IMG/VR virus record: IMGVR_UViG_2698536506_000012
Reading direction: 5' to 3' (one strand)
Length of the DNA stretch: 23,101 nucleotides
From: a virus
Taxonomy: Duplodnaviria; Heunggongvirae; Uroviricota; Caudoviricetes
The notes beneath the pieces were generated by a model. The model did not search any database and was not told the DNA's origin. It was given only the letters and a program-made list of their open reading frames with translations. The stretch's first letter is position 1; every line of letters starts with the position of its first letter. The position numbers were made by a program, and so were the translations under genes. This document shows, one piece after another, positions 1,260 through 23,101 of this stretch.

Positions 1260-1823
1260 TTACGTAACGTCAAACGCTCGAACTGAAGCCAAATCCTCCA
1301 GATTATTCAGTTCTTCCTTCATCTCTCGCTGACGGAAATAAATTTCATCATTGCGATCAACCTGCGCATGAAGCATTGCCGTAAGTAGTTCATCCAGTTG
1401 TTGCATTGACAACTTTACCTGCTGATTAACAGCATCACCCCACGTCATGACGTCCCGTGCTGTGTCGGATTTCGATGCCATCACCACCGGATAAAGACGG
1501 GCCATCGAATCCGGTCCCCCATTCCAGCTATGGCCGTTCCATTCAAAAATGAATGGCTGCGCTTCCTGTTCTGTACGCCATGCTTCAATTTCCCGGCGTT
1601 TGGCTGCTTTTGCTGCTTCCAGCATCTCTGACGTGACGGTGAACGGCGTTATTTCTCCCCATCTCCCGCTTTGCAGCTCCTGCCAGACTCGCTGCCCTGT
1701 CTCTGCTGTATCCGTGGCAGTTGCCGTATACGGAACCGGTTCATCCATGCCATCAAACAACACCCCACAGTCAATCGCGCCATTTTCAAGATAACGCGCA
1801 TTTTCGATGCGTTTTATTTCCAT
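1260..1823 (-). CDS. Tail fibre assembly/chaperone protein, DUF4376-like (about 187 aa)
   Basis: ATG at 1823 with AGGTG 5 nt upstream; stop TAA at 1262-1260. The C-terminal half (EMLEAAKAAKRREIEAWRTEQE...WGDAVNQQVKLSMQQLDELLTAMLHAQ) follows the pattern I recall for DUF4376 fibre chaperones, and it lies immediately 3' of a fibre gene. The ORF-track start at 1856 overlaps the upstream gene and is less likely. Confidence 0.7.
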   Translation of the reverse strand: MEIKRIENARYLENGAIDCGVLFDGMDEPVPYTATATDTAETGQRVWQELQSGRWGEITPFTVTSEMLEAAKAAKRREIEAWRTEQEAQPFIFEWNGHSWNGGPDSMARLYPVVMASKSDTARDVMTWGDAVNQQVKLSMQQLDELLTAMLHAQVDRNDEIYFRQREMKEELNNLEDLASVRAFDVT

Positions 1824-1830
1824 AAAACAC

Positions 1831-3255
1831 CTACGCAATACGTATGAACAAACCAATCATGACACTGGCTGACCCGGCAGACCCGAGCCCATCGCCTGAC
1901 AGTGCCCGATACGACCCCGGCATACCACCACCAGAACCCCGCACATATACGGAAACGCTGTCGTTATATCCAACCCCGCTACCGGTCGTGCCGTGACACA
2001 TAAATTCAACCGCGCTCAGGCGTGAACCCGGATAGCTGTAACCGCGTTTTATCCGGCGGTCGGTGTCTGCGTCTCCCTTACCGTTATAAGCCGCCAGTAC
2101 AAGGCTGCCTGCACCGTACCAGCCGTCCGTGGTACCGGGAGCAATACCGGACAGAAGATAGATAATGTCCTGTGAGGTAATCTTCAGATTTTCCCAGCCA
2201 GTCAGATAACCATTACCTGTTGTCCAGTAGCGGTTGTAATAAACATCGCCATTAATACCGTAGAAAATAATGGCCTTTGCTGTATATCGCGGCTCCGGTG
2301 GATTATTGCGTGCCTCAACCCACCGGATGCGGACCATCCCGTTAAACAACACACCTCCGGATATGATTTTACTGTCACCCTCAACAAAATATTCACCCGG
2401 CGTCGCATTCCTTACCCAGGACAGAAAATCATCCTCTGTGTTAAAACGGATACGCTCTGCGGGCAAAAAAATATGCCCAAAACCAAATGCACCGGGTGTC
2501 GCCAGACGGCCTTCAGTCCGGTCACGAATGTCGCTCTGTGGCGTCATTGTGGCTGCGCTTTTCAGTCCAAGATTATCACGGGATTCCTGCTGAGCCTCTT
2601 CACCTTCATCAGCCAGCTCTGATAAACGATTCGCCGTTTTCAGTGTCGCAGATAACGCAGTATCAATATCCTCCCTGACATGCTCTGCATCAGATGCGGC
2701 CTTTTTCGCGGCTTCAGCATCCTGCCTGACCTCTGCGGCGGTATCCTCAACCTGTGAGACCAGAGTTTCGGCCTGTTGTTTACCCTCCGCAACCGCGTCG
2801 GCGTTCTGCTGAACACCTTCCACCAGTTTTTTTACATCTTCTTTTGCCCGGGCGGCAGCGTCTGCATGTTGCCCTGCCTGTCGTTCGCTTTCTGTTGCAG
2901 TTTCCGCGCTCTGCTGCGCCTGCGCCACCATTTCCTCAAATCGTTTGACGACATCCGGCTTCAGGTCACCTTCATCGATGGCTGTCAGAAAATCATTCAG
3001 CGTGCCGGGCTTTGAATCGTGGTAAACCGAAATATCACCGACACAGTATTCCCTTTCAATACACGACCGAAGATAAACTTCATATTTTCCGGTCTGAGCT
3101 TCAAAAGCATATTCTCCTGCCGGACCTGTCACCACTGTAGCCACCGTTCTCATGACCACTGCGGATGTATTCTGTCGGGCTTTCAGAAGAATATGATGAC
3201 CGGACATAGGACGGCCAGCGCCATCAGCAAGAATCCCTGAGATGAGTGTGGACAT
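1831..3255 (-). CDS. Second side tail fibre protein (about 474 aa) with a Stf-like N-terminal anchor domain
   Basis: ATG at 3255; the ORF-track start at 3324 is a TTG. The N-terminus (MSTLISGILADGAGRPMSGHHILLKARQNTS...[12 protein letters not shown]...) aligns by eye with the Stf N-terminus in this window ([31 protein letters not shown]...[12 protein letters not shown]). It continues into a charged, probably coiled region and a distinct Gly/Tyr-rich C-terminal domain. Confidence 0.8.
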   Translation of the reverse strand: MSTLISGILADGAGRPMSGHHILLKARQNTSAVVMRTVATVVTGPAGEYAFEAQTGKYEVYLRSCIEREYCVGDISVYHDSKPGTLNDFLTAIDEGDLKPDVVKRFEEMVAQAQQSAETATESERQAGQHADAAARAKEDVKKLVEGVQQNADAVAEGKQQAETLVSQVEDTAAEVRQDAEAAKKAASDAEHVREDIDTALSATLKTANRLSELADEGEEAQQESRDNLGLKSAATMTPQSDIRDRTEGRLATPGAFGFGHIFLPAERIRFNTEDDFLSWVRNATPGEYFVEGDSKIISGGVLFNGMVRIRWVEARNNPPEPRYTAKAIIFYGINGDVYYNRYWTTGNGYLTGWENLKITSQDIIYLLSGIAPGTTDGWYGAGSLVLAAYNGKGDADTDRRIKRGYSYPGSRLSAVEFMCHGTTGSGVGYNDSVSVYVRGSGGGMPGSYRALSGDGLGSAGSASVMIGLFIRIA

Positions 3256-3295
3256 AAATTTTTCCCCAAAAAAGCCAGCTTTCGCCGGCAATGCT

Positions 3296-3877
3296 TTAAC
3301 TGACAGGTTGCTGCGGCCACTCAATTTCCGGCGCTAAAGATGTATCAACCCGGTTCAACAACACCCGATACTTCTTCCAGGCCGCCAGCAACGAGGTTTC
3401 TTCCTCCGTTGCAATTTCCAGATCTGCAGCATCCTGAAGCGGTGAAATATGCTCACTGGCTACCTGCATCAGGCTGTTTTTTGTTTCTTCCGCCTCCCGG
3501 ATCCGGAACAGTTTTTCTGCTTCCGTATCCTTCACCCAGGCTGTGCCGTTCCACTTCTGATATTCCCCTCCCGGCGATAACCAGGTAACATTTTCCGGTA
3601 ACGGACCAGGTTCAGAAATAAATAATGCATCCCCTGATGCCACGTCATAGACGGTTTTACCCCGATGGTCTTCAACGAGATGCCACGATGCCTCATCACT
3701 GTTGAAAACAGCCACGAAGCCAGCCGGAATATCTGGCGGTGCAATATCGGTACTGTTTGCTGGCAGACCTGTATGAGGTGGAATGTATGCATCACCTTCA
3801 CCAATAAATTCATTGGTTCCGGCCAGCAGATTATAAATTTTTATGGTCCGTGGTAGTTCACTCATTCTGAATGCCAT
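3296..3877 (-). CDS. tfa: Tail fibre assembly protein Tfa (193 aa)
   Basis: [54 protein letters not shown]... closely matches lambda Tfa as I recall it. ATG at 3877 overlaps the stf stop (TAATG). Confidence 0.93.
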
Positions 3878-6201
3878 TATGCAAGCCTCACAATATAGTT
3901 AAATGCGATGTTTTTAACGGTGTTTTCCGCGTTACCCGCAGCGTCAACAGTAATGGTATGTCCGTGTGAACCAATACTGAAAGAATGGGCATGAGCACCG
4001 ATAACAACCGGATGCTGGTGCGCACCAATACCAACTGTATGCGCATGTGCACCGGCACTCACGGCTGTACCGGACAATGAGTGACTGTGGTTGCCCTGGC
4101 TGTCCGTTTTCGATAAATAAGCAATACCCTGTGTGTTGGTTCCTTTAACTGTGGATAAACTTCCTGTAATGGTTGCTGTTCCATACTGACTCCAGCCAGA
4201 ACTGTTCATCCTTAAACCACTTGTGTGGGCATGAGCACCCGCGGCCCCTGTTGAACCGCTCAGACTGTGAGCATGAGCCCCCGTGTTATTCGTCGATTTG
4301 GTGCCGTAATCGAAACTGCCTGTTGTTTTCGTCCCGTAATCAAACGACGATGTGGTTTTCGTCCCCAAATCCGTACCGGATGCACTGGCACTGTGGGTGT
4401 GCGACTTAATTCCATCCTGTTCCTGAGACAATACAGCACGACCGCTGGCGGGTTTCCCCTTGATTGTCCAGCCTCGCATATCAGGAAGCACACCCGATGG
4501 ATACGCGACAGCAAGTTTTGGGTAGGCTGATTTGTCAAACGCCTGCCCCTGCATCAGGACGTAGCCAGACGGAACGATATCTGATGGCCACGGGATCGGC
4601 GCACCTGCCGGAAAGGCCGAATTCTCTCCGGCCCCAAGGTATTCAAGAACATCTGCAACGGAATTTTTTGCCAGAATATCCCTGCCAACCTGAGTCAGTT
4701 CAGTCAGGCTGGCGGCATCATTTTCCGTAAAATACGGTAATTTATTTTTCGCCGTGGAAAGCCCTGCCAGCGCCGTCAGTGTCGCATTCTTCGGTTGTTT
4801 ACCCGCAAGCGCGTTAGTCATGGTGGTAGCAAAATCTGGATCATTCCCGAGCGCTGCGGCCAGTTCATTCAGCGTATTCAGTGCGTCAGGTGACGCGTCG
4901 ATAACATCTGCAATCGCGGCCAGTACAAAATCGGTGTTCGCAATCTGGGTATTGTTTGTTCCCCTGAGCGCGGTTGGTGCTGTTGGCGTTCCGGTCAGTG
5001 CCGGACTGTCCAGTGGGGCTTTTCTGTTCGTTTCATCCATTACCACCTTAACCGCCTTTGGCGTTGCAGCAAGCGTTTCAGACGTGCTGTTGGTTGCACT
5101 GCTGAGCTGCACTATCCCCTTTCTCGTTGTGTCCGCATCCTCAAGCGCGACAGCTGAAGCTATATCTTCTGCACGTTTTGCCGAATTTTCTGCACGTATT
5201 GCCGCCGCTTCTGCCGCACTTTTGCTCTGCGATGCTGATACCGCACTTCCCGCAGCCTCTGTCGCCTTCGTGGATGCCGTTGACGCACTCCCCGCCGCCG
5301 CTGTTTTTGCGTCTGCCGCGGCAGAAGCGCTCCGTTCCGCTGCTGTTTCAGATGACCTGGCATTCGTCTCGGACGTTTTTGCCGCCCTGGCAGAATTTTC
5401 TGCCGCCGTTGCCGAGGAAGCTGCACGACCGGCACTTGATGATGCGTTCGTTTCTGATGATTTTGCTGCCTCTTTTGAGGCCACCGCATCTCGTGCTGAA
5501 GTGGCGGCCTCTGACGCTTTCGTGGTCGCGGTGGAGGCAGACGTGGCGGCTGATTGTTGTGACGCTGCAGCATTCGTTTCTGACGTTTTCGCCGCACCGG
5601 CACTGGTGGCCGCCGCGTTTTTTGAGGACTCTGCGGCTGCGGCACTTTTTTCCGCTTCAGTGGCCTTTGCTGATGCCGCTTCTGCGCCGGAGGACGCTTC
5701 CTGAGCTGACGATGCAGCCTGTCCGGCGGACGTGCTGGCGGCGCGTGCTGAGTCAGTTGCATCAGTCACAAGGGCCGCGACCTGAGCAGCTGATGCACTG
5801 GCATCGCCGGCTGATTTCTTCGCGTCTGCCGTACTCTGTGCCACCACGGACGCGTTACGCGCCACCTCTTCCACCATCAGTTCAAGACGGCGCAGCACCT
5901 CCGGCCGGGCATCATCCTCCGTCATGGCACAGAGAAAATCATTCAGTGTCCCCGGTTGTGAATCTTCATACACGGTGATGGTCCCGGCGTGCGATGGTGG
6001 AAAACCGTCAACCTGCAGGATGACACTGTACTGACCGTACTCCACATCCATGCTGTAACGCCCGGCTTCATCCGGATTCTCTGAGCCCACCGTGTTCACC
6101 ACCACCGTGGTGCTGTTACGTCTGGCTTTCAGCTGAATGGTGCAGTTCTGTACCGGTTTTCCTGTGCCGTCTTTCAGGACTCCTGAAATCTTTACTGCCA
6201 T
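3877..6201 (-). CDS. stf: Side tail fibre protein Stf, full length (774 aa)
   Basis: ATG at 6201; the ORF-track start at 6207 is a GTG two codons upstream. The N-terminus [26 protein letters not shown] matches lambda Stf. It has a long Ala/Ser/Thr-rich shaft and a C-terminal region with repeated GAHAHS, GNHSHS and GSHGHT (HxH) motifs. Confidence 0.93.
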
Positions 6202-6212
6202 ATTCACCCCAC

Positions 6213-6238
6213 AAAAAAGCCCACCGGTTCCGGCGGGC
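6213..6238 (-). terminator. Rho-independent terminator downstream of lom
   Basis: On the - strand: AGCCCGCCGG-AA-CCGGTGGGCT (one mismatch) followed by TTTTTT. It sits between the lom stop (6266) and the stf start (6201). Confidence 0.6.
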
Positions 6239-6265
6239 TGTCATAACACTGTGTTACCTGGCTAA

Positions 6266-6886
6266 TCAGAATTTATAACCGACCCCAACGATGAATCCGT
6301 CAGTACGCCAGTCGCCACTGCCGGAGCCTTCATAAGCAATATCAACAACGACGGACGCTGCCGGATTAATCTGTATACCTGCACTCCACGCCACTGAGGT
6401 ATGCCGCATTGCTCTTTCGTCCCTGGCGGTGGTCGTCTCTTTCATATACCCGGGAGTGATTTCCGTCTTACGGTAATCCCTTGTACTGCCGGACCACCGA
6501 CTGTGAGCCACTCCGGCCATGGCGTACGCACTGACCTGCTTACTGATTTGTAAAACCGGTCCGGCCATCACGCTCACATAACGTCCACGCAGGCTCTCAT
6601 AGTGAAACGTATCCTCCCCGGTCATCACTGTGCTGCTCTTTTTCGACGCGGCGAACCCCAGGGAAGCCATCACCCCCACACTGTCCGTCAGTTCATAACG
6701 GTACTTCACGTTAATCCCTTTCAGATGACTCACACCGGTATCCCCGCCCGACAACGACGGCAATGTACCCGGTTTCACCTGAAAATAGCCCACCGTAAAC
6801 GTACCATGTCCACCTTCCGCACGGGCCGGAGTGACTGTCACCGCAAGTGCGGCAAAGACAGCAACGGCAATACACACATTACGCAT
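6266..6886 (-). CDS. lom: Outer membrane protein Lom (Ail/Lom family, 206 aa)
   Basis: ATG at 6886 with a GAGGTGA ribosome-binding site. It has an N-terminal signal peptide (MRNVCIAVAVFAALAVTVTPARA) and a beta-barrel-like alternating sequence ending ...GFIVGVGYKF. Size and position between J and stf are as in lambda. Confidence 0.92.
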   Translation of the reverse strand: MRNVCIAVAVFAALAVTVTPARAEGGHGTFTVGYFQVKPGTLPSLSGGDTGVSHLKGINVKYRYELTDSVGVMASLGFAASKKSSTVMTGEDTFHYESLRGRYVSVMAGPVLQISKQVSAYAMAGVAHSRWSGSTRDYRKTEITPGYMKETTTARDERAMRHTSVAWSAGIQINPAASVVVDIAYEGSGSGDWRTDGFIVGVGYKF

Positions 6887-6911
6887 CGTTCACCTCTCAC
6901 TGTTTTATAAT

Positions 6912-6931
6912 AAAACGCCCGTTCCCGGACG
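6912..6931 (-). terminator. Weak hairpin plus U-tract (possible attenuator) between J and lom
   Basis: On the - strand: CGTCCG-GGAA-CGGGCG (6-bp stem with one G-U pair) followed by TTTTATTAT. Confidence 0.35.
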
Positions 6932-6947
6932 AACCTCTGTAACACAC

Positions 6948-9900
6948 TCAGACCACGCTGATGCCCAGCGTCTGTTTCTTAATCACCATAACCTGCACAT
7001 CGCTGGCAAACGTATCCGGCGGAATATCTGCCGAATGCCGTGTGGACGTAAGCGTGAACGTCAGGATCACGTTTCCCCGACCCGCTGGCATGTCAACAAT
7101 ACGGGAGAACACCTGTACCGCCTCGTTCGCCGCGCCATCATAAATCACCGCACCGTTCATCAGTACTTTCAGATAACACATCGAATACGTTGTCCTGCCG
7201 CTGACAGTACGCTTACTTCCGCGAAACGTCAGCGGAAGCACCACTATCTGGCGATCAAAAGGATGGTCATCGGTCACGGTGACAGTACGGGTACCTGACG
7301 GCCAGTCCACACTGCTTTCACGCTGGCGCGGAAAAGCCGCACTCGCCGCCTTTACAATGTCCCCGACGATTTTTTCCGCCCTCAGCGTACCGTTTATCGT
7401 ACAGTTTTCAGCTATCGTCACATTACTGAGCGTCCCGGCGTTCGCATTCACGTTACCACTGATATCGGCATTTTTCGCCGTCAGCCGGCCATCAGGTGTC
7501 AGGGAAAATGCCGGAGGATTACCGCCGCTGGTAATGGTGGGGGCCGTCAGGCGTTTCAGGAACACGTCATTCATGAATATCTGATTGCCCTGCGCCACAA
7601 ACATCGGCGTTTCATTCCCGTTTGCCGGGTCAATAAACGCGATACGATTGGCGGCAACCAGAAACTGGCTCAGTTTGCCTTCCTCTGTATCCTCCATGCT
7701 GAGGCCAAGTCCCGCGACATAATGTCTGCCGTCTCTGGTCTGCTCAATTTTGACGCCCCACATGGCATTCCATTTATCACTGGCGTCTTTCCACTCTTTC
7801 GAAAACTCATCCAGTCTGCTGGCGTTATCCTCCGTCAGGTCGACTTTTTCCAGCAACTCCTTGCCGAGATGAGATTCGGTTATCTTGCCTTTGAAAAAAT
7901 CCAGGTAACCTTCCGCATCATCGCTCGCCCGACCGACAGCCTCCACGAATGCCGATTTGCCAACGGTGTTCACACTGCGAACGTAAAAATAATAATCATG
8001 GCCCGGCCTGATATTGATACTGGCGGCTATCCAGTACAGCGCCGTACCAAGATAACGCGCGCTGGTTTCAACCTGCCTGATATCGGTAATCTGCTTTTCC
8101 GAGAACCAGAACTCAAACTGCACTGTCGGGTCATATACAGCCAGTTTCGGGACCGCCGTTATCTGAAAATAGCCCGGCGTCAGCTCAATCTGTGACGGTG
8201 CAGCCGGTGCGGCAATCCGGAAAGAGACCGACGCCGCATCGCCCTGTTGCCCCCACGCATTTACCGCCCGGACCGTCAGCGTGTAATGCCCCAGCGCCAG
8301 TTGCCTGAAGCGGTATGTGGTTTCCGTCGTCCTGGCCGTGCTGACCAGCCGCTCACTGCCGTCATCCGCTGCCACGGTCAGGCGAAGCAGGAAGCTCACG
8401 CCCTTCACCACCTTCGGCGTGTCCCAGCGCGCCAGCACCTGATACTCCCCGCTGTCTGCGGTGACTTCGGCGGTCAGGTGCTGCACCGCTGGCGGCGTGA
8501 CACCATTCACCGTGCCGCTCTGGTCGCCGTCAAAGTGCGCCCCGTTATCCACGATGGCCTCTTTTTCCGGTACATGCTGCACGGCGGTGATGGCATACGT
8601 GCCGTCGTCGTTCTCACGGATACTCACGCAGCGGAACAGGCGCTGGCGCAACGTCGGCAGCTTCAGCCCCCATACGCTGTATTCAGCAACGCCGTCAGGA
8701 ACACGGCTCACTTTCACCTTCACGCCGTCGGTGACGGACTGAACCTCCACGCTGACCGGACTCCCCTGCCCGTCAACCAGGCTTATCAGCGTGGTGCCGG
8801 AAGATGGCAGCGTGATTTCACGGTCGAGCGTCAGCGTCCGGGTCTGGCTGTTTACCGCCAGCACGCGCCCGCCGGTGCTGATACCGGCATAGTCATCATC
8901 ACAGATTTCAATGACATCGCCCGGCACATGGCGAAGCCCTTCTGCGCCCACGCTGAAGTCCACGGTCTGCGTTTCCAGCAGTTCTGTTTTAATCAGCCAC
9001 AGCCCGGCGCGGTGTGCCTGCCCCCGGCTGGTACAGCCAAAAGCATCCATCTTCGTGACGTTACGACCGTAACGGGCAATGGCCTGCGTATCCTCCACAA
9101 GCTCCGTCGCCGTCTCCCAGCCGTTATCCGGGTCAATCCAGTTCACCTCCACGGCATTATGGCGGTCTTTCAGGGCGCTGAAGCTGTAACGGAACGGCGC
9201 GCCATCATCCGGTATCACCACATTGCTGCGGTTATAGGTCCACACCTTATCCGACGGTCTGTCCTGCACGAACGTCAGCGTCTGTCCGTTCCATACCGGC
9301 ATACAGCGCATCGCCGAGCAGAAATCGCTGAGCACATCCCACGCCTTACGCTGTGATGCCAGATAAGCATTACAGGTGATACGCGGCTCCGTGCCACCAT
9401 AGCCATCCGGTACTGACTGGTCACAGTACTGACCGATAACATACAGGGTCCATTTATCCACCTCCGCTGCCCCGAGACGTTGTCCCATGCCATAACGCGG
9501 ATGGGTGAGCATGTCCCACAGGCACCAGGCCATGTTGTTACTGTATGCCGGTTTAAGTGTCCCGTCCCAGATACCGCTGTACTGCCGCGTCTGTGGATCA
9601 TAGTTCGACGGTACCTGCAGAATGCGTCCACGAAGATGGTAATTACGGCCCACCTGCTGGCTGCCAAACTGCTCTGAATCCACCTGTACGCCGACCAGTG
9701 CCGTGTTCGGGTATCCCTGTTTCACATCGATGATTTCGGTGTATGACGACCAGAGCGTTTTATTCTGCAGCTGGTCTGTGGTGCTGTCAGGTGTCATCCT
9801 GCGCATCCGGATACTGAACGGGCGCGGCGGCAGGTTATCCACCACCACCGAGGCCAGATACTGCGAGGTGGTTTTACCCTTAATGGTGATGTCTTTTTCT

Positions 9901-10346
9901 GTCACCCAGGCGCCGTTACGCTGGATCTGGGCCAGTAATCTCACTTCTGACGGATTGCGGTCCCCCTGAGACGTGGTTTCCACCAGAGCCTGCACACCAA
10001 ACGTAAAACGCAGGCGGTCGATATTTTCTGATGTGATGGTCCGGGTGATCGGCGTGTCATATTTCACTTCCGTACCCAGTACCGTCTCGGAGCCGGAGGA
10101 CTCAAAACCCTCCGGCGGAGTCTGCTCCTGCTCACCGGCACGGAACACCACCGTGACCCCGGAGAAATTGGCCTTACCTTCACTGTCCAGCACCGGCGTA
10201 CTGTTCAGCAACACGCTTTTCATTCCGTCCACCGGTCCTTCAATCGGCCCTTCACTGATCGCATCAATCACGCTCAGTAACTGCGTGGATTTCAGGTTAT
10301 CTTTCGCTTCGCGAGGAGTGTGCCCCTTGCTGCCACCTTTACCCAT
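6948..10346 (-). CDS. J: Central tail fibre / host specificity protein J (1132 aa)
   Basis: ATG at 10346. The N-terminus [24 protein letters not shown] and the overall length match lambda J, and it lies between I and lom. Confidence 0.95.
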
Positions 10347-16473: not shown

Positions 16474-16498
16474 ACAAAAAAACCCCGGCATACCGGGG
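16474..16498 (-). terminator. Stem-loop plus U-tract immediately downstream of V
   Basis: On the - strand: ACCCCGG-TATG-CCGGGGT followed by TTTTTTTGTTGTTT, lying between the V stop (16517) and the G ribosome-binding site. Confidence 0.6.
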
Positions 16499-16516
16499 TA
16501 CAAACAGACCGTCTGA

Positions 16517-19025: not shown

Positions 19026-19048
19026 GAAAAAGGCGGGAATATCCCGCC
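19026..19048 (-). terminator. Stem-loop plus U-tract immediately downstream of E
   Basis: On the - strand: GGCGGGA-TAT-TCCCGCC followed by TTTTTCTTTAT, lying between the E stop (19054) and the FI ribosome-binding site. Confidence 0.6.
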
Positions 19049-19053
19049 TGACC

Positions 19054-20082
19054 TTATTTCACCTGAACCACCACAAATGCGTCCGGATCCGGCAACACCA
19101 TCAACGGCGCAGACTGCGTCATGGTATATTCGCACCCCGGGTCCCCCACCTCTAACCAGTGTTTCGGATAACGAATTGCAGAGGTGATCCCTTCACTCAG
19201 CGCCTGGTTATCCTGGATTGCGCCATAACAACGGACACCCTCCACCTGAGTGTTTCCAAGAATCAGTGTGCCTTCCGGCAGATAACGCTGCTCATCCCCG
19301 TTTTCATCAACATACGTTGTTTTCGCCACCATGATGGCCAGATCACCGTAATAACCTTTAAAAGAAACCACGGAACCCAGATCTTTCAGCGCGGTTTCCA
19401 GTTCAGATTTTGAGCCACGGCGGGTATCCAGTTTTTCACGAAACAGCTTAAAACCGTTCAGCATACGCCAGACAGTACCGTCCATAATCGCAATATTGAT
19501 GGTACCGGAAGCAAAATCGCAGTACGCATCCAGATCATGCGTCGGATCAAAGGTGTCAGCATTCTGTTTTGACCATTCGCGTCCCCCTGCCTGCGTTATG
19601 TTATTGGCGGCAGAACGTCCAAAATCCACTTCCACCGTCTCAAACTGTTCACCGCTCATGGTGTACTTACCCTGCAGAACAGCGCTGACCGCCTGCATTT
19701 CTTCCACCTGCACAATCGCTTGCTCTTCCTGTTTCAGGTTGTCAGTCAGAATACGCAGGCGACGGTAGGCCGGGTCATTAAGACGGGCCGGATCTTCCCC
19801 CGGAAGACGCTCCACCGCCTGCTGATAATCCAGCCGGTGTTTTGGTTTAACATAGCCGGGGCGTAACACGCGGGTTTCACCACCACGACTGCGCAGTACC
19901 TTACCTGACACAACCGGAGACACATATGCCGCAACCGGTGTTTTTCCGGTGATTTTATCCAGCATCACTTCCTGAGTATGGAAAGTGACCGTACGACGAA
20001 AAAACAGCTCCAGAAACAGCGCACGGAATTTCACTTTCTGCTCGGTGTAGCCGAGCAACTGACGCGTGGTAAATAACCCCAT
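19054..20082 (-). CDS. E: Major capsid protein E (about 342 aa)
   Basis: ATG at 20082 with an AAGGAAAG ribosome-binding site. ...GYVKPKH..., ...QVEEMQAVSAVLQGKYTM..., ...KLDTRRGSKSELETA..., ...TMTQSAPLMVLPDPDAFVVVQ match lambda E. Confidence 0.95.
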   Translation of the reverse strand: MGLFTTRQLLGYTEQKVKFRALFLELFFRRTVTFHTQEVMLDKITGKTPVAAYVSPVVSGKVLRSRGGETRVLRPGYVKPKHRLDYQQAVERLPGEDPARLNDPAYRRLRILTDNLKQEEQAIVQVEEMQAVSAVLQGKYTMSGEQFETVEVDFGRSAANNITQAGGREWSKQNADTFDPTHDLDAYCDFASGTINIAIMDGTVWRMLNGFKLFREKLDTRRGSKSELETALKDLGSVVSFKGYYGDLAIMVAKTTYVDENGDEQRYLPEGTLILGNTQVEGVRCYGAIQDNQALSEGITSAIRYPKHWLEVGDPGCEYTMTQSAPLMVLPDPDAFVVVQVK

Positions 20083-20097
20083 AATTGACTTTCCTTT

Positions 20098-20128
20098 AAA
20101 AACACAAACGGGCCGCATCACGACCCGT
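20098..20128 (-). terminator. Stem-loop plus U-rich tract at the 3' end of D
   Basis: On the - strand: ACGGGUCG-UGAUG-CGGCCCGU (8-bp stem with one G-U pair; the loop contains the putative D stop TGA) followed by TTGTGTTTTT, upstream of the E ribosome-binding site. Confidence 0.4.
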
Positions 20129-20390
20129 TTTTTNNNNNNNNNNNNNNNNNNNNNNNNNNNNNNNNNNNNNNNNNNNNNNNNNNNNNNNNNNNNNNNNNNN
20201 NNNNNNNNNNNNNNNNNNNNNNNNNNNNNNNNNNNNNNNNNNNNNNNNNNNNNNNNNNNNNNNNNNNNNNNNNNNNNNNNNNNNNNNNNNNNNNAACACT
20301 GATACCACTGGTACCTGTTGCGGTATACACCGGATCGCTTCCGGCAAAAATGCGCCCGTCCGCGCGCTTTTCTGTGGTGGTTTTAATCAT
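20118..20390 (-). CDS. D: Head decoration protein D, interrupted by an assembly gap
   Basis: ATG at 20390 with an AGGAG ribosome-binding site. The N-terminus MIKTTTEKRADGRIFAGSDPVYTATGTSGISV resembles lambda D (...GNSDPAHTATAPGG...), and it sits between C and E. The frame and length across the N-run are unknown, so the stop at 20118 is tentative. Confidence 0.65.
   Translation of the reverse strand: MIKTTTEKRADGRIFAGSDPVYTATGTSGISVXXXXXXXXXXXXXXXXXXXXXXXXXXXXXXXXXXXXXXXXXXXXXXXXXXXXXXKNGS
20134..20294. other. Assembly gap (161 N)
   Basis: A run of N in the sequence, beginning directly after a T6 homopolymer. Confidence 0.99.
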
Positions 20391-20430: not shown

Positions 20431-21990
20431 TTACGGCATACTCATCAGCAGTTCTTCTTCCCCGTTCCCGGCAGTTCCGCCACCGGAAACGGCACTGGCG
20501 GCATGCTGTGCCATGAAGCGCTCAAAAAGTGTTACCTGTGACGGTTGCGATACTGATGGCGCAGCTGCCAGCAGTGTTTTCGCCTGCTCCACTGTCATTC
20601 CCGGNNNNNNNNNNNNNNNNNNNNNNNNNNNNNNNNNNNNNNNNNNNNNNNNNNNNNNNNNNNNNNNNNNNNNNNNNNNNNNNNNNNNNNNNNNNNNNNN
20701 NNNNNNNNNNNNNNNNNNNNNNNNNNNNNNNNNNNNNNNNNNNNNNNNNNNNNNNNNNNNNNNNNNNNNNNNNNNCGGTGCCGCTGCCAGTAACGTTTTC
20801 GCCTGCTCCACCGTCATTCCCGGCTGTTCAGCCAGCGTCCGTGCCAGTTGTTCACGTCCTTTTGCTTCCGGAAGTGCCACAATCTGATCGCCTGTGCTGT
20901 CAGTACCGGCAACCGGTGCTGCCGCCAGTAATGTTTTTGCCTGCTCAACTGACATTCCCTGCTGACCTGCCAGCATCTGCGCCAGTTTTTCGCGTCCTTT
21001 CGCCTCCTGACAATTCAGGATCCCCATCACGCGCTGATTTTCCTGGGACACCGCTTCAGCAACGGTGAGATTTTTTGTTGTCATCGTATTCTCCTGTGTA
21101 ACAGAGTCGTTCAGAGCAGAAACCATTACATCAACGGCATCTGCAGCATTAATCAGTTGATCAGCCAGGCCTGTATCAATGCCTGCCTGACCGTCATAAA
21201 CGGCAGCCTCGGTATTCATCACCACCTCTGAACTCAGCCCCGTATAAAGTGCCACCTTGTCGACAAACATCCGGCGGGCCTCATCAATACGGCGCTGAAA
21301 ATCCGCACGCACACCTGTCGGCAACGCCTGAATACTGTTGCCGTCAACCTTGTGCTGCCCGGAATAAATCAGCGTGATATCCACGCCTTCCTGTGCCAGT
21401 TGTTTCTCGTAACTGGTGTGCGCCATCATCACACCAATCGAACCAATTTTTGCCGTCTGCGTGACCAGCCGACGCGTACAGGCCGCCGCCAGCAACATGG
21501 CGGCTGAACAGGCCATGTCATTACACAGCGCCCACACGGGCTTCTGTTCCCGCAGACGGTAAATCATGTCAGCACAGTCAAACGCCCCGGCAGCCTGACC
21601 GCCCGGGCTGTCGATATCCAGTAAAATACCGCGTACATCCGGGTCGTTCACCGCTGACTTAAGACGGGCAGTCAGACCGTCATAACCGGTCATACCGGAA
21701 TATGGCCGCAGGGTACCCATTTTATGTACCAGCGTGCCGCTCACCGGCAGAATGGCAATCCCATTTTTCACCTGGTAACTCTTTACCGGACGCGGACCAC
21801 CAGTCATATAATCGGTAACCGCCAGCTGCATACCATCGGCATCAAGCTGAACGGCCTGCTGCGGAACGGCAAGGCTGCCCGCCCCAATTTCCTTACCCAG
21901 TGCGCAAAAGAAAACCCGCGCATAGGCGGGTTCCAGTAAAAGCGGCTCATTAAATGCCATCGCGGCAATATGTGATAAATTACAGCGCAT
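20431..21990 (-). CDS. C: Head maturation protease / scaffold C (S49/ClpP-like; Nu3-like scaffold region in its C-terminal part), gap-interrupted
   Basis: ATG at 21990. The N-terminus ...HIAAMAFNEPLLLEPAYARVFFCAL... and ...PVWALCNDMACSAAMLLAAACTRRLVTQTAKIGSIGVMMAH...ITLIYSGQHKVDGN... match lambda C. ...RVMGILNCQEAKGRE... corresponds to the lambda ...RIMGILNCEEAHGRE... region. Confidence 0.9.
   Translation of the reverse strand: MRCNLSHIAAMAFNEPLLLEPAYARVFFCALGKEIGAGSLAVPQQAVQLDADGMQLAVTDYMTGGPRPVKSYQVKNGIAILPVSGTLVHKMGTLRPYSGMTGYDGLTARLKSAVNDPDVRGILLDIDSPGGQAAGAFDCADMIYRLREQKPVWALCNDMACSAAMLLAAACTRRLVTQTAKIGSIGVMMAHTSYEKQLAQEGVDITLIYSGQHKVDGNSIQALPTGVRADFQRRIDEARRMFVDKVALYTGLSSEVVMNTEAAVYDGQAGIDTGLADQLINAADAVDVMVSALNDSVTQENTMTTKNLTVAEAVSQENQRVMGILNCQEAKGREKLAQMLAGQQGMSVEQAKTLLAAAPVAGTDSTGDQIVALPEAKGREQLARTLAEQPGMTVEQAKTLLAAAPXXXXXXXXXXXXXXXXXXXXXXXXXXXXXXXXXXXXXXXXXXXXXXXXXXXXXXXXXPGMTVEQAKTLLAAAPSVSQPSQVTLFERFMAQHAASAVSGGGTAGNGEEELLMSMP
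20560..20965 (-). repeat. Tandem in-frame 138-bp (46-codon) repeats inside C; at least 3 copies spanning the gap
   Basis: The block GCCAGTAA(C/T)GTTTT(T)GCCTGCTC(C/A)AC(C/T)G(T/A)CATTCC recurs starting at 20786 and 20924 (exact 138-bp spacing), with a further copy ending at 20604. The protein motif (Q/P)GM(S/T)VEQAKTLLAAAP occurs three times. Confidence 0.75.
20605..20775. other. Assembly gap (171 N) inside the C repeat region
   Basis: A run of N flanked on both sides by copies of the 138-bp repeat. Confidence 0.99.
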
Positions 21991-23101
21991 CGCCTTTTTC
22001 TCCCGTTGTCTGTCGGATCTGCTGTTGAAACGCGTCCTTTATCCAGACCGGACGCGGAAGACCGGCAGCCTGTCGCTCCTGAGTTTCCCGTAGCTGCTGG
22101 CGGAAAATCTCCTGATAGTCATCCCCCATCAGGGCCAGCTCTTTCTCGTATGTACTCAGGCCGCCTTCAATGCGCATCACCGCTTCCTGCACTTCCTTAA
22201 GGCCATCAATCGCCATACGACCGGCACCAATCCACTCGGCACGGCACCACCCGGAACGAGCCTCCCAGAATGAGAAACGGGATTTCGGCGGACGGATCAC
22301 ACCACGAATAAGGGCTTCCTCCAGCCAGCAGGCAAACATCTGTGACGCCAGGCGACTGGCCACAAATTTTCGTTTTCCCATAAAATACCGCCACGACTCA
22401 TTGGCGGATGCCCTGGCACTGGAATAACTGACCTGTGAATAATCCCGGGAAAGCTGCTCATACGACACACCCAGTCCGGCAGCAATGTAACGTAACAGCG
22501 CCTTTTCCAGTTCAGAAAAACCATTATCCGCATTCTGGGCTGTCTGCAGATTCAGTGAATCTCCCGGGTAAAGATGCGGAATACGGACTCCGCCCAGTTT
22601 TACCGTATTGGTGGCGTAATAACGCGCGTAGCCTTTCATGATGGTGTTCAGGGGATTTTTACCTCCATCTCCCACCCCGGCGATATATTCAAACGCTTTT
22701 TCCGAATCCAGTGTGGATTCAATCGTGGCGGCATACATGGCGCGAACCACCGCCGACTGCAGTTGCGTGGCCTGCAGTGTGTCGAGCATCTTGAGACGCT
22801 CCATTACAGAATAAAACTGGTTGGCCCCGCGGGTCTGCCCGTCTTCCTGTGGCTGAAACACATGGATCATTCCCGGTCGTCCGGAAGGCAGTGTTGCCGT
22901 AATTCGTGTCCATTTACTGACACCGTAGCCGGGCCAGTCATCATCCTGAACATGGTAGGCCAGCGCTTTTCCGTGTCGGTTTATTTCCACCCCGGCACGC
23001 ATAAAACGATCGCCGGTACCATAACCGGGTGTACTGACACGCTTCGGGCTGATGGTTTTGAATTTCGTCCGGAATAATGACGTGGATTCCGCATCCCATA
23101 C
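21980..23101 (-). CDS. B: Portal protein B, C-terminal part (5' end lies beyond the window)
   Basis: The frame stays open from 23002 to the window edge; my hand translation reads ...KFKTISPKRVSTPGYGTGDRFMRAGVEINRHG..., which aligns with lambda B ...FRMVSPKRISNPNNTGDSRNCRAGVQINDSG.... Downstream, ...HVFQPQEDGQTRGANQFYSVMERLKMLDTLQATQLQSAVVRAMYAATIES...GRMAIDGLKEVQEAVM... also matches. Confidence 0.93.
   Translation of the reverse strand, partial: VWDAESTSLFRTKFKTISPKRVSTPGYGTGDRFMRAGVEINRHGKALAYHVQDDDWPGYGVSKWTRITATLPSGRPGMIHVFQPQEDGQTRGANQFYSVMERLKMLDTLQATQLQSAVVRAMYAATIESTLDSEKAFEYIAGVGDGGKNPLNTIMKGYARYYATNTVKLGGVRIPHLYPGDSLNLQTAQNADNGFSELEKALLRYIAAGLGVSYEQLSRDYSQVSYSSARASANESWRYFMGKRKFVASRLASQMFACWLEEALIRGVIRPPKSRFSFWEARSGWCRAEWIGAGRMAIDGLKEVQEAVMRIEGGLSTYEKELALMGDDYQEIFRQQLRETQERQAAGLPRPVWIKDAFQQQIRQTTGEKGDAL

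Follow-up and report, generated by a model that had tools for sequence, protein, structure and literature searches.

In a lambda-like prophage, a GC hairpin, a run of six T residues and a G-run lie ahead of each of the two tail fibre genes, stf and stf2. The DNA analyzed is a stretch of 23,101 nucleotides from a tailed phage (Caudoviricetes; IMG/VR record IMGVR_UViG_2698536506_000012), the whole of which is called the window hereafter, and the two blocks are called site A (the lom-stf junction) and site B (the tfa-stf2 junction). Judged from their sequence, sites A and B are most likely two independent, ordinary Rho-independent terminators, each of which lies directly before the ribosome-binding site of the next gene. 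The initial annotation, whose quoted sequences and coordinates for both sites proved to be exact, had regarded them as the same block and had proposed that a conserved linker of fibre cassettes is located there, which would also act as a terminator or attenuator. The terminator-like character of both sites was confirmed in the present analysis, and the notion of a conserved linker was not.

Terminator-like sites were collected by a pattern scan, and approximate d'Aubenton-Carafa scores were computed with ViennaRNA energies. The GC hairpin, the T6 and the G-run reported for the two sites were borne out, and both sites were among the top matches of the scan. When the folding energies were predicted, a check that had been proposed for these sites, hairpin A exhibited -17.7 kcal/mol (z = -2.35 compared to shuffles) and hairpin B -11.5 kcal/mol (z = -2.19). 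The approximate d'Aubenton-Carafa scores were +31.6 for site A, with a tail score of 4.04, and +21.9 for site B, with a tail score of 4.22. Both hairpins have the GC-rich stem of about 5-14 bp and the loop of 3-8 nt known for intrinsic terminators, and together with the U-tract they form the canonical arrangement. Furthermore, the T-runs are present on the strand of late transcription only; both sites are one-directional and intergenic and follow stop codons, hairpin A starting 27 nt past that of lom and hairpin B 7 nt past that of tfa. As predicted terminators, A and B are real and non-random.

The G-runs had been proposed to double as ribosome-binding sites, which is plausible. The predicted duplex with the 16S anti-Shine-Dalgarno sequence was -10.6 kcal/mol for the stf leader and -5.5 kcal/mol for the stf2 leader. 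Since they pair with the 3' end of 16S rRNA, the G-runs are credible Shine-Dalgarno sequences, and each of them lies directly after its terminator because the intergenic gaps are only 40-64 nt long. No 3'-end mapping or promoter data for lom and stf were found in the full-text literature searched, and no terminator feature is annotated across 15-24 kb in the lambda records NC_001416 and J02459.

The two sites have in common only GGCTTTTTTG plus the G-run. This 10-mer has three copies in the window, compared to 0.05 expected, all of which are on the late strand: one in A, one in B and one at 1178-1187. The third copy forms the foot of the hairpin that closes the operon, and no gene comes after it. 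Since GGCTTTTTTG is also present at the operon-end hairpin, it is a signature of terminators rather than of fibre genes. When A and B were aligned at the T-run, they displayed 46% identity over 46 nt, including the six T residues that are fixed by the alignment. The comparison set consisted of 47 mutually dissimilar and unrelated blocks of hairpin plus T5 from approximately 1.5 Mb of prophage DNA. The mean identity of A to these blocks was 39 +/- 8%, and for 25% of them the identity to A equalled or exceeded that of B; for 6% of the same blocks, the identity to B equalled or exceeded that of A. The alignment that had been suggested for the two upstream regions thus places them within the range for unrelated terminators and does not bear out "the same block" at both genes. 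As far as the sequence can tell, any two terminators with a ribosome-binding site behind them would resemble each other to the degree that A and B do.

Fibre-gene junctions in relatives were surveyed in PF08400-encoding loci from IMG/VR and GTDB, which comprised 194 fibre-gene starts and 51 distinct 60-nt upstream sequences. Some of the loci are one contig fetched twice, and the counts of distinct sequences are therefore safer than those of loci. The identities of the upstream open reading frames (ORFs) were checked with Pfam, in which the GPD match was below the cut-off (22.9 vs 30.1 bits). A hairpin with a T-run was present at every junction with an upstream Lom-family gene (102 loci, 16 distinct sequences), J (3 loci, 3 distinct), IS200 tnpA (1 locus, 1 distinct), or tfa separated by a 40-nt gap, which is the site B type (6 loci, 2 distinct). 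At the other stf2-type junctions it was observed in 0 of 76 loci, made up of those with tfa at a 23-nt gap (43 loci, 12 distinct), tfa at a 63-nt gap (5 loci, 2 distinct) and a GPD-like gene at a 24-nt gap (28 loci, 10 distinct). Where the upstream ORF was unclear or truncated, 2 of 6 loci had it.

In the lambda-type stf loci, the 14-nt leader GTGGRGTGAATATG is the sole conserved upstream stretch, and the hairpin before it varies with the upstream gene (Lom-family, J or IS200 tnpA) and appears in several sequences. In the relatives of stf2, homology starts at the ATG; their upstream regions are unrelated and the stf2 leader is not conserved. Since the hairpin varies with the upstream gene and is absent at the junctions of the stf2 relatives, it belongs to the upstream unit and not to the fibre cassette. 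The absence of the block from homologous fibre junctions in related phages, which the initial annotation itself had named as evidence against a conserved linker, is thus what was observed, and A and B are not homologous beyond the terminator pattern. We also considered descent of A and B from a single ancestral block. This was rejected: their similarity is in the range of unrelated terminators, the stf2 relatives are without the block, and a 21-mer of site B recurs convergently, as described below.

Several of the surveyed loci had features of their own. In locus L014 (IMGVR_UViG_2563366879_000003), an IS200-family transposase gene (PF01797) is located directly upstream of stf, and its hairpin CCTCCGGC-TAT-GCCGGAGG replaces the lom terminator. 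In locus L113 (Salmonella enterica CP191473, approximately 2960-3003), the sequence before a distant PF08400 gene ends in CCACTGGCTTTTTATGGAGTGAATAATG with a T-run and the conserved stf-type leader and has no left hairpin arm, as if a rearrangement had cut a former terminator. The N-terminal region of lambda stf was present at 99-100% identity in GTDB contigs L083-L100, L103 and L107, which are assigned to Leeuwenhoekiella, Pseudomonas, Shewanella, Desulfosporosinus, Oceanobacillus, Kitasatospora, Bradyrhizobium and other genera. Many of these contig names give approximately 1x coverage, and the assemblies look as if they were contaminated with lambda DNA.

The sequence of site A is that of lambda itself. 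Positions 6290-6180 of the window are 100% identical to lambda nt 19,561-19,671, and hairpin A falls within lambda nt 19,610-19,652. The lom-hairpin-stf junction occurs 11,919 times, in 4,307 of 5,426 complete Escherichia coli genomes, including the Rac prophage (stfR) of K-12. Among 10 variants of site A, pairing was kept in 97.5% of cells; the changes were mostly in the loop, and the four pairs that varied had wobble changes only. Retention of the pairing is suggestive of selection on the structure, although not of a compensatory kind. As for the J-type terminator GGGCGCCA-GAAA-TGGCGCCT, which takes the equivalent position in other phages, pairing was 100% across 8 distinct variants, and two pairs had compensatory changes, from C-G to U-A via U-G and from G-C to A-U.

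The layout of hairpin, T-run, purine-rich ribosome-binding site and ATG within 11-25 nt was also found at four late-strand places besides A and B (Table 1). Since it follows the V-position, capsid-position and J genes as well (the V-position and E/capsid-position names being given by position alone), this arrangement is not peculiar to fibre genes. The eight strongest late-strand sites with hairpin and T-run comprised six that were wholly intergenic, one that adjoined a run of N bases and one inside an ORF, while the intergenic gaps amount to only about 2.3% of the late strand.

Table 1. Late genes and terminator-like elements in the window. V-position and E (capsid)-position refer to lambda gene order; d-score, approximate d'Aubenton-Carafa score.
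Feature	Position	Strand	Description
11-pair hairpin + GTGTTTTT, then AAGGAAAG + ATG	20106-20130	-	ATG of the capsid-position ORF; adjoins first N run
Hairpin AGGCGGGA-TAT-TCCCGCCT + TTTTCTTT, then AGGAGAG + ATG	19031-19049	-	After E (capsid)-position ORF; d-score +29.7
Hairpin ACCCCGG-TATG-CCGGGGT + T7, then GGAGAAGG + ATG	16482-16499	-	After V-position ORF; d-score +45.2
J	6948-10346	-	First of the late genes listed from here; then lom, stf, tfa, stf2, DUF4376 gene and palindromic hairpin
Hairpin CGTCCG-GGAA-CGGGCG, then TTTTATTAT	6916-6931	-	After J, before lom; identical to lambda; d-score +9.0
lom	6266-6886	-	Ail/Lom outer-membrane protein; transcript would end at site A
Site A hairpin AGCCCGCCG-GAAC-CGGTGGGCT	6239-6218	-	After lom; 9 pairs, 7 of them G-C
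Site A T6	6218-6213	-	First T pairs with A6239
stf leader GTGGGGTGAAT	6212-6202	-	5' leader; Shine-Dalgarno GGGGTGA
stf	3877-6201	-	Side tail fibre, 774 aa; ATG at 6201; PF08400 N-terminal, fibre-repeat and collar domains
tfa	3296-3877	-	Tail fibre assembly protein; PF02413
Site B hairpin GCCGGC-GAAA-GCTGGC	3289-3274	-	After tfa; 6 pairs, 5 of them G-C
Site B T6	3273-3268	-	Directly 3' of the hairpin
stf2 leader GGGGAAAAATTT	3267-3256	-	GGGG (3267-3264) as Shine-Dalgarno, then AAAAATTT
stf2	1831-3255	-	Second fibre gene, 474 aa; ATG at 3255; PF08400 N-terminal domain
DUF4376 gene	1260-1823	-	Downstream of stf2; last late-strand gene
Operon-end palindromic hairpin AAAAGCCTCTGA...TCAGAGGCTTTT	1181-1212	both directions	Between DUF4376 gene and ssrA; T-runs both ways

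Strong Rho-independent terminators are known to flank lambda E (Chen et al. 2005, PMC1151598), and Juhala et al. 2000, as cited in that paper, are credited with the view that such terminators help silence aberrant prophage transcription. Like the sites described here, those at E consist of a GC hairpin and a U-tract, occupy the short intervals between late genes of one direction, are oriented with late transcription and are expected to be bypassed by Q-loaded polymerase. The window also has hairpin sites on both sides of its capsid-position ORF, as at lambda E. Compared with the terminators of Q-antiterminated late operons, there is no difference in kind: the layout is routine in lambda-like prophages, site A is of a known kind, and site B is a rare and undescribed instance of the same kind from a rare prophage lineage. 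A hairpin, T-run and G-run before a phage gene should thus be interpreted as the upstream transcription unit's end followed by the next ribosome-binding site, and such blocks are no evidence of a shared cassette linker. Comparison of a pair with unrelated terminators, of homologous junctions in relatives and of the layout before other genes provides a worked control for such cases.

The hairpin that closes the operon differs in its stem, which has 12-14 bp, compared to 6-9 bp at the J, lom and tfa junctions; the internal hairpin at 20106-20130 has 11 pairs. In plasmid pLS20, long stems make terminators resistant to processive antitermination, in a system different from that of Q (PMC10325885). 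The operon-end hairpin resembles TerR of pLS20, a long-stem, antitermination-resistant terminator at an operon end (PMC10325885), as far as the length of its stem goes, and this likeness does not apply to sites A or B.

The prophage adjoins ssrA (tmRNA; 698-1060, + strand), and its late strand is the minus strand, convergent with ssrA. The window matched a prophage of E. coli C5 with 99.8% identity across its first 7 kb. In the remainder of the C5 prophage, an integrase gene is located at the far end, and a gene for a Q-family antiterminator precedes the lysis and structural genes and is oriented as they are. The best explanation for A and B, and in our judgment a probable one, is that they are independent intrinsic terminators at module boundaries, which would serve as stops in the silent lysogen and be read through with Q upon induction. 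Both sit in the distal part of the late operon, in a prophage that is integrated at ssrA. Site A, which has the lambda sequence, would end the lom unit, whereas site B would be a lineage-specific terminator between the lambda-type tfa and an appended phiP27-type fibre module. In the lysogen, RNA polymerase without Q should stop at A and B, including that engaged in lom transcription and that from stray initiation, and such termination would keep the fibre genes silent and prevent transcription towards the convergent ssrA. Upon induction, the Q-loaded polymerase would read through, and stf, tfa, stf2 and the DUF4376 gene would be part of the late transcript.

Some observations weigh against this explanation. 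No terminator is present at the 76 related stf2 junctions, so that B may have little function. The variants of site A have no double compensatory changes, and site B shows almost no variation from which selection could be judged. Moreover, no sigma-70-like promoter was detected in the 61-nt J-lom gap, or elsewhere near 6887-6990 on the minus strand, by a simple consensus scan, which weak or non-canonical promoters could escape.

The latter point concerns the source of lom transcripts in the lysogen. Expression of lom in lysogens has been reported (PMC1151598, PMC7067206), and little is known of the lom promoter (PMC2147009). Morons (for 'more DNA', a concept of Juhala and Hendrix) bring along terminators of their own, and Lom has been discussed among moron-encoded proteins (PMC3594210). 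As expected for a moron, lom is an extra gene between J and stf, which are otherwise adjacent, and it has its own downstream terminator, a hairpin with a T-run being present at 102 of 102 Lom-to-stf junctions. Unlike a typical moron, it has no sigma-70-like promoter match and no distinct base composition, the GC content being 54.8% for lom compared to 57.0% for J and 55.1% for stf. The J-lom gap is identical to that of lambda, and in loci of the L199 and L010 types the space from the J terminator to the lom ribosome-binding site is too short for a promoter. On sequence grounds, lom fits a unit that is gained or lost, as in the moron concept. The small RNA region of Phi24B downstream of lom was considered and found not to be relevant; its authors state that it is absent from lambda.

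Site B, unlike site A, is rare. It was found in 7 of the 5,426 E. coli genomes, in one context only and as full-length matches (near and distant BLAST), and IMG/VR contained 2 contigs of this kind. Hairpin B co-occurs with a rare tfa 3' end. Canonical terminators after tfa were present in 9 of 85 loci, 8 of which were of the site B type. Exact matches to the 21-nt core of site B, CCGGCGAAAGCTGGCTTTTTT, were found in 20 metagenome contigs representing about 10 unrelated contexts, none of which resembled tfa or stf2. Since the core occurs in so many unrelated contexts, such hairpins arise convergently, and identity need not mean common descent.

We also weighed the possibility that site B lacks a function and is either a relic or a product of chance, perhaps the ancestral end of the operon after tfa to which the phiP27-type module was appended later. 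This has a modest chance of being correct. The nearest relatives of the stf2 N-terminal domain, which are 83-94% identical, are encoded downstream of a GPD-like baseplate gene of phiP27-type phages, from which they are separated by 24 nt that contain no terminator; the association of hairpin B with the rare tfa 3' end and the recurrence of generic terminators, including the exact B 21-mer in unrelated metagenome contexts, are also as would be expected from a relic. However, canonical terminators after tfa are rare and mostly of the site B type, and no phage with this tfa 3' end and hairpin B before anything other than stf2 was found in the 5,426 E. coli genomes or IMG/VR.

Other features were noted around tfa. 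In some loci, a long inverted repeat, GCCGCAGAAACGTT...AACGTTCTGCGG, is conserved behind the lambda-type tfa and is without a U-tract (L083 5909-5960, corresponding to approximately lambda nt 22,560-22,610; also L201, L042 and L108), and variants such as GCCGCAGACACGTCG...GAACGTGCTGCGG appear to retain the pairing. A match to Rfam IS009 (RF02111) was obtained at 3336-3534 of the window on the minus strand, with 206.9 bits compared to a gathering score of 117. It is located wholly within the coding sequence of tfa, on the coding strand, and its end is 47 nt upstream of hairpin B.

The initial annotation had also suggested that the block sets fibre expression below that of the upstream genes. 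A and B would then act as attenuators or means of differential expression during lytic growth, either by partial termination despite Q or as 3' barriers that stabilize the upstream mRNA; the expression of stf and stf2 would be lower than that of the upstream genes, and the proportion of the two fibre types would be determined by B. The sites with hairpin and T-run after the V- and capsid-position genes, whose products would be abundant by lambda synteny, would agree with this, and internal terminators of pLS20 do give differential expression in an antiterminated operon (PMC10325885). The two PF08400 fibres presumably dock alike, and their ratio could thus matter. Nevertheless, the nozzle formed by lambda Q is described as an effectively absolute barrier to the formation of terminator hairpins, with antitermination that persists over tens of thousands of steps, and terminators are reported to have no effect on Q-loaded polymerase over tens of kilobases (PMC9388147). 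With such a nozzle and such long-lasting antitermination, strong attenuation of the late transcripts is unlikely. In addition, most related second-fibre junctions are without the hairpin, and no alternative antiterminator structure appeared in the folded leaders: in folds of 71-76 nt around A and B, the terminator hairpin was the sole stable element (whole-segment z of -1.69 and +1.23), and the gaps have no room for the leader ORF that an attenuator would have. An attenuator that lowers lytic fibre expression is doubtful in our analysis, and we regard differential expression by these sites as improbable compared to stops that Q overrides.

Modular exchange at the block had been proposed as well, and this part received partial support at the J, lom and stf T-runs, where breakpoints of similarity were found, but not at site B, where the break is within tfa. 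One J terminator sequence is located before stf in 42 loci and before lom in 31+1 loci; the sequences of these two kinds of locus part 3-4 nt past the T6 of the J terminator. The lom segment begins right after the T6ATT of the J terminator and ends in its own T-run, which is joined to the stf leader (L199 and L010 types). Breakpoints within a few bases of T-runs fit the gain and loss of modules at the ends of transcription units.

These breakpoints, together with the presence of GGCTTTTTTG in A, B and the operon-end terminator, could be taken to indicate that the terminator foot and T-run provide short homology for inserting, losing or swapping modules. At site B, however, high similarity to lambda stops at approximately 3315-3335, inside the 3' end of tfa and about 25-45 nt upstream of the hairpin, and the homology of stf2 starts from its ATG. 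Since recombinants with broken genes are removed by selection, breakpoints would lie at gene boundaries in any case. Moreover, A and B are alike only in the general terminator pattern, and junction B occurs in one context among the 5,426 genomes. A role of these blocks as recombination linkers thus has limited support from the sequences, and we consider recombination joints quite unlikely as the explanation for them. A broader proposal, in which terminator feet and U-tracts are the preferred module joints of late operons (for lom and for the phiP27-type cassette after tfa) and terminator B in addition tunes Stf:Stf2 through incomplete Q read-through in virions with two PF08400 fibres, would be very unlikely. 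Independent terminators at the ends of upstream units remain the preferred explanation for A and B.

The PF08400 domain is present in both fibre proteins, Stf and Stf2, which shared 37% identity over 191 aa. The 3' part of stf2 and the DUF4376 gene displayed 77% nucleotide identity to phiP27, and this lambda-like siphovirus prophage thus has a second fibre module that appears to stem from a phage of the myovirus type. More than 50 IMG/VR loci have PF08400 fibre genes in tandem behind tfa.

In the head-gene region of the window, runs of 161 and 171 N bases are located at 20134-20294 and 20605-20775, respectively, and leave the ORF between the protease-like and capsid-position genes largely unreadable. 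Outside the window, the C5 prophage has a porin gene annotated as ompC, which is on the opposite strand directly after the Q-family gene (L305 21599-22702; C5 1709598-1710701). Beyond this porin gene, a tRNA-Gly gene lies ahead of the lysis genes.

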